The notes under the pieces: model-generated
Seen by the model: only the letters and a program-made list of their open reading frames with translations
Database searches by the model: none
What the model was told of the DNA's origin: nothing
Source: an uncultured Candidatus Saccharibacteria bacterium
GTDB taxonomy: Bacteria > Patescibacteriota > Minisyncoccia > Phycocordibacterales > UBA2100
DNA length: 64,000 nucleotides
Assembly (NCBI GenBank): GCA_964586255.1
Contig: CAZPGE010000003.1
Location: forward strand, 66,537-130,536
Reading direction: 5' to 3'
Translations under genes and position numbers: made by a program
Part shown: in pieces, positions 18,375 to 39,638 of the stretch
How the letters are laid out: the number at the start of each line of letters is the position of its first letter
Position numbering within the stretch: position 1 is the first letter of the stretch

Positions 18375-19691
<1,317 letters not shown>

Positions 19692-19692
19692 C

Positions 19693-19720
19693 AAAACGAC
19701 CTCGAAAGGGGTCGTTTTAC
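19693..19720 (+). terminator. Rho-independent (bidirectional) terminator after rpoD
   Basis: aaaacgacc-tcgaaagg-ggtcgtttt. Confidence 0.7.
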
Positions 19721-19739
19721 CGAGAACCGTTCTCTGTGT

Positions 19740-20267
19740 TCATAGCTTGTCAGGTATTATCGACCAATCCGTAAAATCATGTACCTGTTGTCTGGCACGC
19801 CTTCCCAATAGAAACGTTAGTGTGGCGATAAGTACTGTGACGACAAACCAGCCGATTATCCAACACCAACTTTGAGAAGAGAGATTTTTGTTGCCAAAGC
19901 CCGTAACTATTACGACGGACATTGCAATTAGTAATGCTCCAAACGAATTAAAGTTGAGTATCGCCATGTTCCAACGTCGCTCAATGTTGCTTCGACGAAA
20001 AGCTCGCAGATCTGGTTCAAGACCCTTCCAATACTCCCATTCCTTCGAGCTATTGAAATCATTAGTACAGAAATTAAGAAAGGCGTACGTGAATGTTGAA
20101 ATAACGTACCCGAGAGCGAATATCAATAACGTGCCCCCAAATAGAATTTGAACCGTATCGTCGCCGGTTCTTAGAAGGCCTAACGATTCACTGGGGTACG
20201 CTGAGGCAATTGCCACAATACTCAGTACTGGCGGAATAGTGTACTTATATTGAAAGAGAGTCTGCAC
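19740..20267 (-). CDS. Hypothetical multi-pass membrane protein on a conspicuously AT-rich segment
   Basis: 175 aa with several hydrophobic helices and a GTG start. Local GC is far below the ~60% background. Confidence 0.5.
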   Translation of the reverse strand: MQTLFQYKYTIPPVLSIVAIASAYPSESLGLLRTGDDTVQILFGGTLLIFALGYVISTFTYAFLNFCTNDFNSSKEWEYWKGLEPDLRAFRRSNIERRWNMAILNFNSFGALLIAMSVVIVTGFGNKNLSSQSWCWIIGWFVVTVLIATLTFLLGRRARQQVHDFTDWSIIPDKL

Positions 20268-20413
20268 TCAAGAATGCTACTCCTCCATGAGGGTTTGTCC
20301 AATGAGGGGATATTCATAGAAACAGCCCGCGGCATGGCTCAACAGAGCTACATCCAAGGGGACCCCTTGGAGTAATGACGGAGTTACGATCTCCGTCATA
20401 GTCAAAAGAAACA

Positions 20414-20434
20414 GCCGGGCGCGAAGCGCCCGGC
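20414..20434 (-). terminator. Hairpin-repeat family member (gccgggcgc-gaa-gcgcccggc); acts as a minus-strand terminator
   Basis: Perfect 9-bp stem with a GAA loop. The minus-strand reading is followed by TGTTTCTTTTG. Confidence 0.6.
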
Positions 20435-20454
20435 TGCGATGGTCCGATTGGGTG

Positions 20455-20850
20455 TCAGGACCGTGTCTTGGCCGCCTTGCGTTCTCGGAGTGCACGCCTC
20501 GCGAACACGATAAACACGATGAGCAGTGTCAGGTCGAACGCGACCCTGGTAATGCGTCCCAGCGTGTGTGCGAGTGCGTCAGAGAAGCCCACGAAGCTGT
20601 ACGCGCCGATGACGATTGCGTCCAAGAGTGCGGGCAGCTCAAGTGCGGTGGCCATGATGGCGCTTGGCGTGAGCTCGCCGTGGCGGACGTACACCCATGC
20701 CATCAGGCCGATGAACGACGCCACTTCGAGCAGAAGTAGTGCGATGACGACCCGACGAGATCTTCCTTGTTTTCGCATCCTGTCCTCCCAAGTATCTGGG
20801 TGCTGTGGAGATGCTACCCTCGCACTAAATATTGTCCAATAGTCACTCAT
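20455..20850 (-). CDS. Hypothetical membrane protein (131 aa)
   Basis: Protein-like ORF with TM segments. A hairpin-repeat terminator lies immediately downstream. Confidence 0.5.
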   Translation of the reverse strand: MSDYWTIFSARVASPQHPDTWEDRMRKQGRSRRVVIALLLLEVASFIGLMAWVYVRHGELTPSAIMATALELPALLDAIVIGAYSFVGFSDALAHTLGRITRVAFDLTLLIVFIVFARRALRERKAAKTRS

Positions 20851-34978: not shown

Positions 34979-35626
34979 TTATAAAGGACGGTCCTTTATA
35001 ATCTTGGCCTCGTCTGCCACTCGCCAGAGATACCACGATGCTGCCGTGGCGTGTGCTCTCCACGGCAGCGCTATCTTCTCCATCCGCTTTTTGTCGGGCA
35101 ATTGCTTGAGGCCATAGACCTCCTTGAATCCTTTTTGTATCGCGAGGTCGCCCCACGGGAGGATGTCGGGGCGATAGAGGGTGAATATGAGGAGCATGTG
35201 CGCGGTCCACACACCGATGCCTTTGACTTGTACGAGGTGGTCGATGATTTCCTGCGAGGACATCTTCGGGAATCGTTTCTCGCTTATCGTGCCATCGAGA
35301 TATTTGTGCGCGAGGTCTCGCACATACACCACCTTTTGCGGCGAGAGCCCCGCGGAACGCAGCTTGGAGACGGGGATTTTCAGCAATAGCTCGGGCGTCG
35401 GCTTTTTTCTTGGAAACAGCTCCAATACGCGGTCGAGTATCGCCGCCGCTGCCTTTCCCGATATTTGCTGATACACAATAGAGCGCACGAGCCGCGCAAA
35501 CACAGAGCCCGCACCTTTGTGATATTTCGATAAATCGAGTGTGCCGTGTTTGCGCAACACGGCGGCCATCTTCGGGTCCTTTTTGAGCGCCTTGAGCGAC
35601 TCGGAAAAATCAGGATGTTTTACCAT
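34979..35626 (-). CDS. HhH-GPD superfamily DNA glycosylase (AlkA / 3-methyladenine DNA glycosylase II-like)
   Basis: HhH-GPD region: …VKGIGVWTAHMLLIFTL…PWGDLAIQKGF. Confidence 0.8.
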   Translation of the reverse strand: MVKHPDFSESLKALKKDPKMAAVLRKHGTLDLSKYHKGAGSVFARLVRSIVYQQISGKAAAAILDRVLELFPRKKPTPELLLKIPVSKLRSAGLSPQKVVYVRDLAHKYLDGTISEKRFPKMSSQEIIDHLVQVKGIGVWTAHMLLIFTLYRPDILPWGDLAIQKGFKEVYGLKQLPDKKRMEKIALPWRAHATAASWYLWRVADEAKIIKDRPL

Positions 35627-35633
35627 GTGTAGA

Positions 35634-35644
35634 TGACCCTAACG
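35634..35644. repeat. 11-bp near-copy (tgaccctaAcg) of the tRNA-Glu 3' end (tgaccctaCcg, 38139-38149), at the far border of the AT-rich island; candidate att remnant
   Basis: 10/11 identity, direct orientation. It sits exactly where GC content drops. Confidence 0.3.
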
Positions 35645-35772
35645 ATACAGAACTCAAAACCAATAATCCAGTTCCTCCAAACGCTCAGCGCTGTAGCGGC
35701 AAAATTCGAGAGTCTGCAAAATCGAGGCTTTGCACCAACGGCTCAGCTTATGGAAATACTCCCTTAATGGGG

Positions 35773-36420
35773 TTAAAACCCTGTAATCTGTGCTAGGTGG
35801 GGCAAATACTGAACTAGTACATTCTTTGCCGCTTCCCACAATGTATAAAGATCGGCAGAGGTTGAGAGCATCGACTTAATTGACTGGTACGTCGTCTTCT
35901 GAACAGATAAATTTTGCTGTTCTTTTGGAACAGATATTTGACTCAAAAGATAAGAAATTTGTTCGATAGTTTCTTTTCGCGCTTCTTGGGCCAGATCATT
36001 GTTGCGTGATATTGATTCAATCAATGCTTTGAGCTGTTCAGCATGCTCAGGGTTAACTTGCTGAATTAGTGAAACTGACGAGTTTAGTGATCCTATGGTG
36101 CCCGTGTTGAGCACGCCAATAGTGCTCCCATCGATTCTAATACTATGGTCGTTTACGGTTGTTCTCGGAGCATGCACTATCTGCCTTGGTGGGATTTGCA
36201 TAGGCACTCTGGGCGCTAACCCAACGGCGGCATATGCTGAGTTCTCTATGTCATTCATCTGAGCCATCAGGAGCCTAATGGTGTCATTCGTTGCGTTTTG
36301 GATTTGCGAGAGCATTGCTGCGTGCTCAACGCACAAGGGATGCCCTTGCATAGTGCCTATTGCGGGTTTGCTACATTGGCTGCATTGCATATAAATTATG
36401 ACATTTGGATTCGCTGCCAA
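35773..36420 (-). CDS. Hypothetical protein, third gene of the island operon; N-terminal CxxC…C…H cluster, Q/S/N-rich helical remainder
   Basis: 215-aa ORF (alternative start MQCSQCSK at 36390). AT-rich codon usage unlike the backbone. Overlaps or abuts the upstream gene. Confidence 0.5.
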   Translation of the reverse strand: MAANPNVIIYMQCSQCSKPAIGTMQGHPLCVEHAAMLSQIQNATNDTIRLLMAQMNDIENSAYAAVGLAPRVPMQIPPRQIVHAPRTTVNDHSIRIDGSTIGVLNTGTIGSLNSSVSLIQQVNPEHAEQLKALIESISRNNDLAQEARKETIEQISYLLSQISVPKEQQNLSVQKTTYQSIKSMLSTSADLYTLWEAAKNVLVQYLPHLAQITGF

Positions 36421-36983
36421 TCTTTGATGGCAAGCTGAAAGCGTTGGATTTCATCATCATCGAGTTCGCAGCTGTGTGCTATTGGGTTTCTGATGCGATT
36501 CAAGAGTCGGAGTGCCGCTACGGCTGCTTTCTTGCTTCTAAGCGTGTCAGAAAAGTCGTCCCAGTTTGACTCGATTATTTTTATTAGATCGCTGAAGTTG
36601 GTGTAAAAAATGGGTTCCTCCGAGCGTATCGCTATGGGGGTTTCTTGCTCACGCTCTCGTAAATCCACGACATCATTCTTCACTTCTTCAGGCACTTTTT
36701 GTTCCCACCAATCAGCACCATACTTCTCTTGTAAGCGTCCGACTATGAGGTTGCGTACAGAGTTCTCGATACAGAAGTAGAGATAGTAGAATGCGCTCAT
36801 CTTACGTGCTTGGTCTCGTATGTCAGCCTCGAAGAGCTCTACGTCTACGATCTCTTTTTGTTCGATTGTCTGCGAGTGGCCGATGTCGAGGCCTGCCTCC
36901 TCCAACTTCAGTAGGTCCGCTTCGAGCTGAAAGTTCTGCATCCCGAAAATCTTGAGCTCCTGGAGAAAATCTTGCGATGTCAT
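36396..36983 (-). CDS. HEPN-like domain protein (R-x4-H motif; Swt1/AbiV- or RiboL-PSP-like), putative RNase effector
   Basis: C-terminal …AALRLLNRIRNPIAHSCELDDDEIQRF carries R-N-P-I-A-H within an all-helical ~195-aa protein. Its ATG overlaps the stop of the upstream gene (TAATATG). Confidence 0.55.
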   Translation of the reverse strand: MTSQDFLQELKIFGMQNFQLEADLLKLEEAGLDIGHSQTIEQKEIVDVELFEADIRDQARKMSAFYYLYFCIENSVRNLIVGRLQEKYGADWWEQKVPEEVKNDVVDLREREQETPIAIRSEEPIFYTNFSDLIKIIESNWDDFSDTLRSKKAAVAALRLLNRIRNPIAHSCELDDDEIQRFQLAIKDWQRIQMS

Positions 36984-36984
36984 A

Positions 36985-37626
36985 TTACTTGTCCAGCAGG
37001 TTTGCTTTGAGGCTTTTGAAGATGGCGTTAAAAACCTCAATTTCTGTCGTCGGGGGCAGGTTGAGGTTAATCGTGTAGGAAAGGCCAAACTTCGTTGGGA
37101 GCTCAACGTGTACCTGCTCTCTGTCCTTGCGAACCTCATTCCGGGGCTCCTCCTCTTGTATCAAGTGTGGAGGAGGCACTTCGCCCTCGAAGTCGGCAAG
37201 CTTTACCAGTTCCAAGAAAGTGCTGGCTACTGCGCTGACCTGTTGGTCGCTTTTCGAAGCACCAGTGATTCGCACGATGATGTTTTCGAGCTCTTTCTTA
37301 TCCTGCCTGTGTGCATACTCGCTCGCTTTGTAGAGATCGGCGTACGCCTTCCGAAGCTTGTCTGCCAAAATGGCGCTCTTTCCCTGCTCACCCCTGTAGT
37401 CTTTGTACGCCACTGTGGGTACGCCAGCCGCATCAAGGAAATCTATCTTCTTGAGAAGCGGAATGAGTGCTCTATGGCTCGACGACTTGAGCCCTAACAT
37501 AGAGGCTAGGAAATCGTTGGTAAACTTCGTCGGTACCTGCGCCTCTCGAATCTTCGGAAACAGGCTGGCGACGCCGCCATGTGCGTTTACGTAGGGAGGG
37601 AATTTTCTCTCTGCCATATCTGTCAT
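36985..37626 (-). CDS. Hypothetical protein, first gene of the island operon (213 aa); no recognised catalytic motif
   Basis: Protein-like ORF with AT-rich codon usage. No P-loop or nucleotidyltransferase motif. The C-terminus is …FGLSYTINLNLPPTTEIEVFNAIFKSL. Confidence 0.55.
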   Translation of the reverse strand: MTDMAERKFPPYVNAHGGVASLFPKIREAQVPTKFTNDFLASMLGLKSSSHRALIPLLKKIDFLDAAGVPTVAYKDYRGEQGKSAILADKLRKAYADLYKASEYAHRQDKKELENIIVRITGASKSDQQVSAVASTFLELVKLADFEGEVPPPHLIQEEEPRNEVRKDREQVHVELPTKFGLSYTINLNLPPTTEIEVFNAIFKSLKANLLDK

Positions 37627-38138
37627 TTGTGCTAATGAGTAATAGGAGTCTGGCGCAGCATCGTGCTGAACACGCCAAAGTCCTTATGGAGTATACGTTG
37701 GTGCACTCTCGCAGCAAGATTGACCTTTTTCCCCCGTGTGTCGCTCTGAGTTTTTGGCGCATTGTGCCAGATTCTGTAGATGTCTTTGATATTTATTCAA
37801 AGAATCGCTACTCACATGCCATACCCTGCGCGCTCGTAGATCTCGTTGATGGCAGCTTCGAGCCTGCTGAAGCAGTCCGGATCGTGTAAGCATTTCACTC
37901 TTGCTCTCTCGTCCGGAGAATCCCGAAACAGGAGTTGAGGCAGTAGTTGAGTTTGGAATTCGCCTCGTTAAAGAATATCCGGACATGTGGCGAATGTTGG
38001 AGCCTGCAGAGTTGCGAGCAATCAATTCCATGCTCTTTCCTCAAAACCTGCTGTATCACCATCCTGGAATTAAAACCGCTGAATTAGCACCAATTTACAA
38101 GCTTAAATCGGCATCGAACGATGCGGTGAATCATTATG

Positions 38139-38210
38139 TGACCCTACCGGGAATCGAACCCGGATTCTCAGCTTGAAAAGCTGGTGTCCTAACCATTAGA
38201 CGATAGGGCC
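38139..38210 (-). tRNA. tRNA-Glu (TTC)
   Basis: Minus-strand reading GGCCCTA-TC-GTCTAATGGTTAGGAC-A-CCAGC-TTTTCAA-GCTGA-GAAT-CCGGGTTCGATTCCCGG-TAGGGTC-A. The T-arm GGTTCGATTCC is present. Its 3' end faces the AT-rich island. Confidence 0.85.
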
Positions 38211-38414: not shown

Positions 38415-38499
38415 GGAGAGGTGGCTGAGTGGTCGAAAGCACCGGTTTCGAAAACCGGCATACCGCAAGGTATCGAGAGTTCGAATCTCTCCCTCTCCG
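38415..38499 (+). tRNA. tRNA-Ser (CGA), type-II with a long variable arm
   Basis: GGAGAGG-TG-GCTGAGTGGTCGAAAGC-A-CCGGT-TTCGAAA-ACCGG-CATACCGCAAGGTATC-GAGAGTTCGAATCTCTC-CCTCTCC-G. Confidence 0.85.
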
Positions 38500-38668
38500 C
38501 ATGTTGAAAATCCCCCGACTGCGGGGTGATTTTCTTATGCGGAGAGGAGAAGAGTGCTGAGCACTCTTCGTGAGAGATTCGAACAGCGGAGCGATGCCGA
38601 GCCAGCTGGCGAGGCCGTGAGCTGGTGCCTAGCCCGAGTCCACCGACGGGTGGACGAGAGGCGAAGGA

Positions 38669-38698
38669 GAATCTCTCCCTCTCCGCACGTGTTGAAAA
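38669..38698 (+). repeat. Direct repeat of the tRNA-Ser 3' end plus flank (gaatctctccctctccgca[cg]tgttgaaaa), copy of 38483-38510
   Basis: 28 bp identical apart from a 2-bp insertion, 186 bp downstream of the tRNA; att-like. Confidence 0.6.
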
Positions 38699-38741
38699 AG
38701 GCGTACTTCGGGTACGTCTTTTTCAATGTTGGCGTGCGATA

Positions 38742-39638
38742 ATGGAGCGCATGCAAAGAGGTGGCACTGTGGGACTTCTTCTCGTCGTGTTCGGAATCCT
38801 CGTCGTGACGATGTGGGGAGGGTACTACGCATTCAAGGCAGACCCAGAGCCAGAGCGGGCGCCGACGCCGCTCGTAGAAGTGGTACCAGATGGCGACCCG
38901 CGAAAGACGCGCTCATACGTGATTCTCGACAACAGCTTTGCGTCGGGTGGGGAGTACGTCTACTACAAGACCGGCAGTGACAGCACAGGAGAGCCTGTCT
39001 ACGCCGTCGTGCGTGGTGCCGACCCTGAGACCTTTAAGAAAGTCGGTACCGTCTCGCCGCATATTCCTGGTGGCGCACCTCGCAGCTCCACACAGACCTC
39101 GTCGCTCGTGGGAGGTAGTGGCGGCTCTGCGCAAGAAGCAACGCAAAGCTCACAGACTGTGACGCAGACACAGTCTAGTGGTCCCACACAGCTCGGCTCT
39201 GCCGGAGGCTCTGGTGCCGCCGGCACCTCGTATAGCATCACGTATTACAGTGACGCAAATAATGTGTACATGGTCATAGAGAGCGGCGGACAGACGAGCT
39301 CGCCGCAAGTCGTCGTCGGTGCAGACCCAGCTACTTTTCAGATTTTGAATGCGGAATATTCAAAAGATGCGGAGCATGTGTACGTCATCATCGTGACTTG
39401 CACAGATGGTGTATGTACCGCTTCCGTGTCGATAGTGGCGTCGGCCGACCCTGCGACATTTCAAGCTTTTCCTTCTGCGCAGAATGTTTTGAATTCCGAT
39501 TGTACGGGCTACGTGGTAGCCGATGGTCAGGATGCCAACAATGTGTACAACAACGGTCAGATAGTCGATGGGGTAAGCGTGTACTTGATTGGCGGAGGTG
39601 GCAGCTGCGACGACACGCCGGTCCTCATATCGCCATAG
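38742..39638 (+). CDS. Membrane-anchored DKNYY-like repeat protein
   Basis: N-terminal TM anchor, then repeated units (GEYVYYKTG…ADPETFK; DANNVYMV…ADPATFQ; DAEHVYVI…ADPATFQAF; DANNVYNNG). Confidence 0.5.
   Translation: MERMQRGGTVGLLLVVFGILVVTMWGGYYAFKADPEPERAPTPLVEVVPDGDPRKTRSYVILDNSFASGGEYVYYKTGSDSTGEPVYAVVRGADPETFKKVGTVSPHIPGGAPRSSTQTSSLVGGSGGSAQEATQSSQTVTQTQSSGPTQLGSAGGSGAAGTSYSITYYSDANNVYMVIESGGQTSSPQVVVGADPATFQILNAEYSKDAEHVYVIIVTCTDGVCTASVSIVASADPATFQAFPSAQNVLNSDCTGYVVADGQDANNVYNNGQIVDGVSVYLIGGGGSCDDTPVLISP

Follow-up and report, generated by a model that had tools for sequence, protein, structure and literature searches.

We analysed a 64,000-nucleotide (nt) stretch of DNA from an uncultured Candidatus Saccharibacteria bacterium (contig CAZPGE010000003.1, positions 66,537 to 130,536; hereafter the window, whose own numbering is used below), and focused on three small genes, A, B and C, that lie between an alkA-like glycosylase gene and tRNA-Glu. 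The results showed that the conserved unit at this locus is two genes, A and B, and not three. A encodes a DUF5343 protein, and B encodes a Swt1-like HEPN protein that is a putative endoribonuclease. The features of the locus are as follows.

34979-35626: HhH-GPD (alkA-like) glycosylase gene (Pfam E 2.4e-15).
35633-35647: direct copy, now decayed, of the final 15 nt of tRNA-Glu, the distal cargo boundary (11/15 identical; 10/11 core at 35634-35644).
35653-38137: strain-specific cargo segment, 2485 bp, guanine-plus-cytosine content (GC) 0.478, delimited by comparison with the relative L096.
35773-36390, minus strand: gene C, unnamed family, 205 amino acids (aa) from the ATG; its open reading frame (ORF) reaches a TTG at 36420.
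36396-36983, minus strand: gene B, Swt1-like HEPN protein, 195 aa, putative endoribonuclease (Pfam PF18731; PADLOC phage defence candidate (PDC) model PDC-M34B).
36985-37626, minus strand: gene A, encoding a DUF5343 protein of 213 aa when read from the first ATG (ORF and Pfam).
37627-38137: spacer of 511 bp that separates gene A from the tRNA-Glu 3' end, GC 0.474.
38138-38210, minus strand: tRNA-Glu(UUC), the proximal cargo boundary (ARAGORN; Rfam tRNA, 64 bits).

A first-pass annotation, made from the sequence alone, had described three tightly packed minus-strand ORFs, and these were found as stated. The stop codon of A and the ATG of B are 1 nt apart in the window. C follows B after 5 nt when it is read from the ATG at 36390, and overlaps it by 25 nt when it is read from the TTG at 36420. 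The GC of 0.478 at 35653-38137 compares with a mean of 0.556 (standard deviation 0.018) over equally long segments of the 64 kb; it is the minimum of the window, and this is the only sizeable stretch with GC below 0.49. The compositional dip described in the annotation was therefore borne out, but its backbone value of ~60% was too high, the backbone lying at ~56%. GC at third codon positions (GC3) falls from 0.63 in A through 0.56 in B to 0.45 in C, compared with 0.58-0.69 in the flanking genes; by this measure C is the gene most unlike the backbone, and A lies near it. The ORFs of the 511-bp spacer had no Pfam or NCBIfam match, and Rfam returned two tRNAs only. The spacer presumably holds the operon promoter; a scan for promoters and terminators gave signals no better than chance or below it. 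One other stretch of the window, 19250-20500, had a 1-kb GC slightly below 0.50 (0.495-0.499).

B matched the Pfam family PF18731 (HEPN_Swt1) at 53.9 bits (E 2.7e-14; gathering cut-off 27.5). It also matched the PADLOC model for PDC-M34B (PDLC04592) at E 2.6e-43, with residues 8-191 aligned to profile positions 4-188 of 192. Two motifs were recognised in the protein, E73-N74-x2-R77 and R165-x4-H170, the latter reading RNPIAH. In an alignment of 33 B sequences, R165 was invariant, and H170 was present in 31, as were E73, N74 and R77. The RxxxxH motif was retained in 77 of the 79 genomic B partners described below, and both exceptions are broken ORFs. With a family match above the cut-off and a motif conserved to this degree, the earlier description of the middle protein as a HEPN protein with R-x4-H stands. 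B is acidic, with an isoelectric point (pI) of 4.6 (family median 5.1). Profiles of A, B and C gave no meaningful match to the sequences in the PDB, leaving B without a solved relative by sequence.

A belongs to the Pfam family DUF5343 (E 1.3e-47) and matched the PADLOC model for PDC-M34A (PDLC04589) at E 2.5e-55, with its residues 11-210 aligned to positions 6-207 of the 208-position profile. Its true start is likely M4 at 37617, giving a protein of 210 aa. The protein consists of a basic winged-helix and helical N-domain (approximately residues 10-150, pI 9.0), a charged linker that varies in length and charge among homologues, and a C-terminal peptide. The predicted fold of the N-domain is of the winged-helix type, its fold matches being winged-helix proteins, with weak similarity to BrxA and SspB, which are defence accessory DNA-binding proteins. 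The last 30 residues (GLSYTINLNLPATTEIEVFNAIFKSLKENLL) form the most conserved segment of A and are near-invariant from archaea to proteobacteria; the near-invariant C-terminal peptide reads GLSYTINLNLPPTTEIEVFNAIFKSLKANLL, and the C-terminus is the one quoted in the first-pass annotation. No nucleotidyltransferase family was matched in A at E<=1, and DUF5343 was its sole Pfam match. Both this match and the winged-helix fold agree with the earlier statement that the upstream partner is not a nucleotidyltransferase of the minimal nucleotidyltransferase (MNT) type.

We scanned one genome per species (GTDB r232) with a profile of A. The results showed at least 471 loci in bacteria and archaea, and the best 80 were examined. 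Among these 80, the bacterial loci came from Acidobacteriota, Bacteroidota, Proteobacteria, Actinomycetota, Cyanobacteria, Planctomycetota and Patescibacteria, and the archaeal loci from Woesearchaeota, Bathyarchaeia, Thermoplasmata, Nitrosopumilus and Methanosarcinales. Carriers detected in the scan that can be cultured include Pseudomonas sp. LP_7_YM, Alcanivorax xiamenensis, Erythrobacter sp. NAP1, Tenacibaculum adriaticum and Gordonia hydrophobica. A homologue of B lay directly after A in 79 of the 80 loci, and in the remaining one the contig ends just past A. Measured from the A stop to the B start, 32 loci had a distance of -4 nt, 13 loci one of -8 nt and 7 loci one of -11 nt, the two codons usually overlapping; in 78 of 79 the distance was at most 17 nt. 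Identity of A-B across phyla was 40-57%, and the distribution was patchy in both bacteria and archaea. The closest relatives of the pair (68-90% identity, all on contigs resembling the candidate phyla radiation (CPR)) lay in other genomic contexts with unrelated genes downstream, and in none of the genomes examined did A-B appear as a syntenic core gene pair of a whole clade. No homologue of C was found within 6 kb of any of the 80 loci.

The 150 immediate neighbours of A-B fell into 130 Pfam families, none of them present in more than two loci. A few were defence or mobility genes: an integrase, PIN, Cas1, mad3, PDC-S13, PDC-M52B and a type I S subunit. Several further observations concern individual copies. 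B is split or truncated in L054 (6578-7163) and L087 (1007-1531), and the tail of A is lost in L047 (1643-2194); occasional broken copies of this kind are typical of dispensable accessory genes. In L131 (1405-4647), A-B is flanked by two R-x4-H proteins, one of 191 aa containing EFRNKIAHANW and one of 422 aa with a sub-threshold match to ApeA-like HEPN (E 6.7e-4), and this locus may be a cluster of HEPN genes. The genes that follow A-B in L126-L130 were considered as HicAB-like, a reading to which Pfam gave no support.

The first-pass annotation had regarded the genes as an uncharacterised module unlike any named pair. The pair had in fact been catalogued, A as DUF5343 and A-B under the PADLOC candidate PDC-M34. 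The PDC collection comprises 145 phage defence candidates, proposed by guilt-by-embedding because copies of them lie within BREX, DISARM or type I restriction-modification (RM) loci (Payne et al. 2024, bioRxiv 10.1101/2024.01.29.577857), and the cassette CAS_00130, FAM_01148>>FAM_01657, is assigned there to candidate PDC-M34 (Payne et al. 2024, supplement file 8). Both proteins of the window match the PDC-M34 models nearly end to end, and the adjacency, the shared strand and the order of A then B are those of the two-family cassette. Judged by sequence, A-B is a member of PDC-M34. It differs from the defining copies in its setting: the copies from which PDC-M34 was defined come from RefSeq genomes and lie inside BREX, DISARM or type I RM loci, whereas the copy in the window is patescibacterial, adjoins a tRNA, has no defence neighbours and is followed by an extra, unrelated gene.

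Family identities, motif conservation, pairing and coupling, patchy spread, absence from a close relative and composition were all observed directly. Taking them together, we favour the reading, at a probability of roughly 60%, that A-B is an autonomous, horizontally mobile two-gene DUF5343-HEPN(Swt1) cassette in which a latent HEPN RNase is gated by its winged-helix partner. The layout is that of a type II-like toxin-antitoxin pair, with two small, adjacent and coupled genes, the upstream one carrying a domain of a DNA-binding type. The working that we propose for the cassette, from RNase activity and complex formation to the trigger and the defence role, is inferred and runs as follows. B would be a latent, metal-independent HEPN endoribonuclease, with an active site formed by R165 and H170 together with E73, N74 and R77, probably spanning a dimer, which is the arrangement of other HEPN proteins. 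Translational coupling would supply A in a fixed ratio to B, and A would form a complex with B. The basic winged-helix N-domain of A would bind nucleic acid, serving autoregulation, sensing or targeting, and the C-terminal beta-alpha peptide, on its flexible linker, would dock on B and keep it latent; both this inhibition by the tail and the direction of regulation are part of the proposal. Infection or loss of A might then free or redirect B, and B would cut cellular or invader RNA so that growth stops, an outcome resembling abortive infection or a toxin-antitoxin system.

A number of points weigh against this reading. Many, perhaps most, of the A-B neighbours in other genomes are housekeeping genes, and in the window the pair has no recognisable defence gene adjoining it. 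A was absent from 72,556 plasmids, from 50,697 phage records and from IMG/VR, collections that are poor in environmental taxa; such an absence from plasmids and phages is unusual for a classic addiction module. Our search of the searchable literature found no experiment on PDC-M34 or DUF5343, the validations that it found concerning other PDCs. Finally, the charges are the reverse of those in many toxin-antitoxin pairs, B being acidic and A basic, and a role of A as a nucleic-acid-binding or targeting subunit therefore fits at least as well as a role as inhibitor.

The mobility of the cassette was assessed by comparison with relatives at the same site. A metagenome scan with the glycosylase gave L096, whose flanking proteins are 87-97% identical to those of the window. 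The two have in common the gene order pyrF, DKNYY-like gene, tRNA-Ser, tRNA-Glu, glycosylase, DUF7282 and Sua5. DNA homology between them breaks off precisely at the tRNA-Glu 3' end (38137) and is picked up again at 35652. At the cargo position L096 carries an unrelated 840 bp (GC 0.445) with a 254-aa membrane-type ORF, and it has none of A, B and C. With the lowest GC of the window and with A, B and C missing from L096 at the same site, the suggestion made from the sequence, that the cargo was acquired horizontally at the tRNA-Glu 3' end, is supported. No truly empty tRNA-Glu-alkA junction was found. Since L096 has a different gene at the same bounded site, the site is a tRNA-flanked variable cargo hotspot without an integrase.

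The last 15 nt of tRNA-Glu (TCCCGGTAGGGTCAC) recur at the far boundary as decayed copies, TatCGtTAGGGTCAt in the window (11/15 identical) and TCCCacTtGGGTCAC in L096 (12/15 identical). Both copies lie within 8 nt of the resumed homology, and most of their mismatches fall at positions that differ between the two; the repeat is short, and it has decayed. In the window it sits 7 nt upstream of the start codon of the alkA-like gene. The 10/11 core pairs 35634-35644 with 38139-38149, a match of a kind expected about 0.6 times per 64 kb on both strands and about 0.02 times per 2.5 kb on one strand. The chance of a tRNA-end match within 30 nt of the boundary was ~3e-3 for the window and ~4e-4 for L096. 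Thus the direct repeat that the first-pass annotation took as a signature of integration is present; taken alone it is weak, and it becomes more credible because L096 carries a copy at the same place. No integrase or integrase remnant was detected at 35627-38137, either by Pfam and NCBIfam searches of the spacer ORFs or by tblastn with the integrase of L092, which bears out the earlier observation that none survives.

Cargo next to tRNA-Glu was also seen in other CPR contigs. In L094 (8691-10909) and L095, tRNA-Glu(ctc) is followed by A-B and an unrelated 213-aa protein, and in L091 (6697-8249) it is followed by a C homologue and a 233-aa membrane protein. All three share the backbone mraZ-mraW-PBP-Mur-ligase (PBP, penicillin-binding protein). 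The flanks of tRNA-Glu are recurrent cargo sites. On the far side of the cargos in L094 and L091, a search for the tRNA-Glu(ctc) 3' end gave no repeat.

We consider an integrase-mediated origin of the island likely. The cargo might instead have been swapped through its conserved flanks without site-specific integration, the repeat then being due to chance or to the alkA leader. The lack of an integrase or its remnant would fit such swapping, as would the weakness of the 10/11 repeat by itself and the missing tRNA-end repeat beyond the A-B cargo of L094 and the C cargo of L091. However, the cargos of the window and of L096, which differ from each other, both begin exactly at the tRNA 3' end, and the 11/15 and 12/15 copies both lie close to the far boundary, with the low chance probabilities given above (~4e-4 to 3e-3). 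In addition, tRNA-Glu precedes A-B or C in two other related genomes, and the neighbouring tRNA-Ser has a 22-nt duplication of the target type. On balance we regard origin by swapping as unlikely, though it is a serious competitor to integration.

A further alternative concerns the direction of regulation, namely that A activates or targets B, with the basic winged-helix domain bringing the acidic HEPN protein to specific DNA or RNA and B being inactive without A. The opposite charges of B and of the A N-domain are consistent with this, as is the weak fold similarity of A to BrxA and SspB. Strict 1:1 coupling of the genes would suit an obligate heteromer, and the absence from plasmids fits poorly with an addiction module. 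We judge activation by A to be rather improbable as an account of the pair, and we retain gating of a latent B by A as the preferred reading.

A role in housekeeping or stress RNA processing, with no tie to phage or mobile-element conflict, would accord with the many housekeeping genes among the immediate neighbours elsewhere. Nevertheless, the spread of the pair is patchy, at 40-57% identity between phyla, the cassette is missing from the close relative L096 at the same site, and its composition departs from the backbone. Moreover, 2 of 79 copies are broken, and PDC-M34 was first found inside BREX, DISARM or RM loci. Such a role is accordingly very doubtful, and a mobile conflict cassette remains the reading that we prefer.

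That A, B and the zinc-ribbon protein C act together as a single defence or toxin module is the weakest of the alternatives and highly improbable: all three genes point the same way in the window and in the near-identical contigs L001 and L002, with B and C 5 nt apart and probably co-transcribed, but C accompanied none of the 80 A-B loci, the closest relatives of A-B precede unrelated genes, C occurs without A-B in at least six other contexts, and its GC3 is lower than that of B and A, which suggests a history separate from theirs. The three-gene module of the first-pass annotation is therefore not upheld, C being absent beside A-B and found alone elsewhere by the neighbourhood co-occurrence check.

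We then characterised C on its own. Its start is most likely the ATG at 36390, because homologues begin with MQCSQCS. The protein has an N-terminal CxxC...CxxH zinc ribbon, which confirms the cysteine/histidine cluster noted previously, followed by a long helix, then by a disordered segment that holds the motif IxIDxSxIGVLNTG, and at the C-terminus by a helical bundle. The structure was predicted by AlphaFold2 at a mean pLDDT (predicted local distance difference test) of 89.7, and its fold gave no informative match in the PDB or BFVD. No family for C was found in Pfam, NCBIfam, PADLOC or PHROGs. A word-index search gave 14 homologues, and a profile search gave 1386 representatives at E<=1e-3, of which 737 reach E<=1e-10. 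The family consists of proteins of ~195 residues with a CxxC...CxxC/H ribbon; some members have an N-terminal extension in place of the ribbon, where P0356 shows a weak winged-helix match. The contexts without A-B, at least six in number, come from L005-L010 and L091-L093. The C homologue of L092 (55-6333) shares its contig with genes for a tyrosine integrase, an HTH_17 protein of the excisionase type, a 196-aa protein and an 819-aa protein that matches no family; here C is probably part of an integrative element. The best reading of C is that of a mobile gene in its own right, which landed beside A-B in this lineage and is probably co-transcribed with the pair in the window.

Among the closest known systems, HEPN-MNT (HepT-MntA) is likewise a two-gene system, widespread in bacteria and archaea, with a small R-x4-6-H HEPN protein and a translationally coupled upstream partner. 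It differs in that the partner in the window is a DUF5343 protein, winged-helix and helical with a C-terminal peptide, and not a minimal nucleotidyltransferase, and in that B falls in the Swt1/Abi2 branch and not in the MNT-associated branch. Neutralisation by AMPylation is consequently not expected. In RnlA-RnlB and LsoA-LsoB, a protein partner restrains a latent HEPN RNase, which phage infection sets free; this is the same working principle as the one proposed for A-B. RnlA is a large multidomain protein, and the gene order and partner folds differ from those of A-B; to our knowledge, neither system has a sequence relationship to A-B. The HEPN proteins of the Abi2/Swt1 clade (AbiD/AbiF, and the Ava_2192 type fused to a DUF499 ATPase) belong to the same HEPN branch as B according to Pfam. 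They occur as single proteins or as fusions to ATPases or transmembrane segments, the Ava_2192 type in operons resembling those of RM systems. Bacterial HEPN proteins of this branch have been inferred to possess catalytic activity and are linked to RM and abortive-infection contexts (Anantharaman et al. 2013, PMC3710099); that survey contains no description of a partnership between DUF5343 and HEPN.

A broader proposal, which we put forward tentatively and with less confidence than the cassette reading, is that A-B could represent a distinct and ancient class of HEPN regulation, with members in no fewer than 471 bacterial and archaeal genomes, one per species. Its winged-helix protein, resembling BrxA, would gate or target an unusually acidic B by means of a tethered, near-invariant 30-residue peptide, a mode that differs from the AMPylation of HEPN-MNT and from RnlB-type antitoxins. 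C, with its 1386 representatives, could be a further unrecognised mobile conflict gene.

In terms of what the locus adds, it does not hold a new kind of system; by its family matches, it holds a new member of the catalogued candidate PDC-M34 from a CPR genome, together with an unrelated gene. The analysis sharpens what can be probed in PDC-M34, which comprises strictly two translationally coupled genes. The pair spans bacteria and archaea, including the small-genome CPR and DPANN lineages. The C-terminal peptide of A is its most constrained element and an obvious handle for mutagenesis, and the catalytic motif of the HEPN protein is conserved. The flanks of tRNA-Glu and tRNA-Ser are documented here as cargo hotspots in Parcubacteria-type genomes, in which mobile elements and defence are poorly known.

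The neighbouring tRNA-Ser(cga) has an insertion of its own. A segment of ~186 bp lies right after its 3' end (window 38483-38690), flanked by a 22-nt direct repeat of this tRNA end at 38483-38504 and 38669-38690, the two copies being identical at 21 of 22 positions. In L096 the insertion is absent, and the tRNA end joins sequence matching the window from 38688 onwards. The insertion looks like the scar or remnant of an integrated element. Within it (38541-38584) lies an inverted partial copy of the tRNA-Ser T-arm and 3' end, with arms at 38479-38491 and 38572-38584 that are complementary at 13/13 positions, which hints at an earlier inversion between sites derived from tRNAs.

The divergent tRNA-Glu/tRNA-Ser pair is itself inverted relative to the glycosylase when the window and L096 are compared with the distant relatives L097, L098 and L102-L106. 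In these distant relatives, tRNA-Ser lies 0-1170 bp from the glycosylase; in L102 its 3' end abuts the glycosylase ATG, and in the others it is separated by 88-1170 bp of variable sequence. The long ORF of the DKNYY-like gene (38625-39638) has its GTG start at 38625, inside the tRNA-Ser insertion; its real start is probably near 38750, because the alignment with L096 begins at residue 43.

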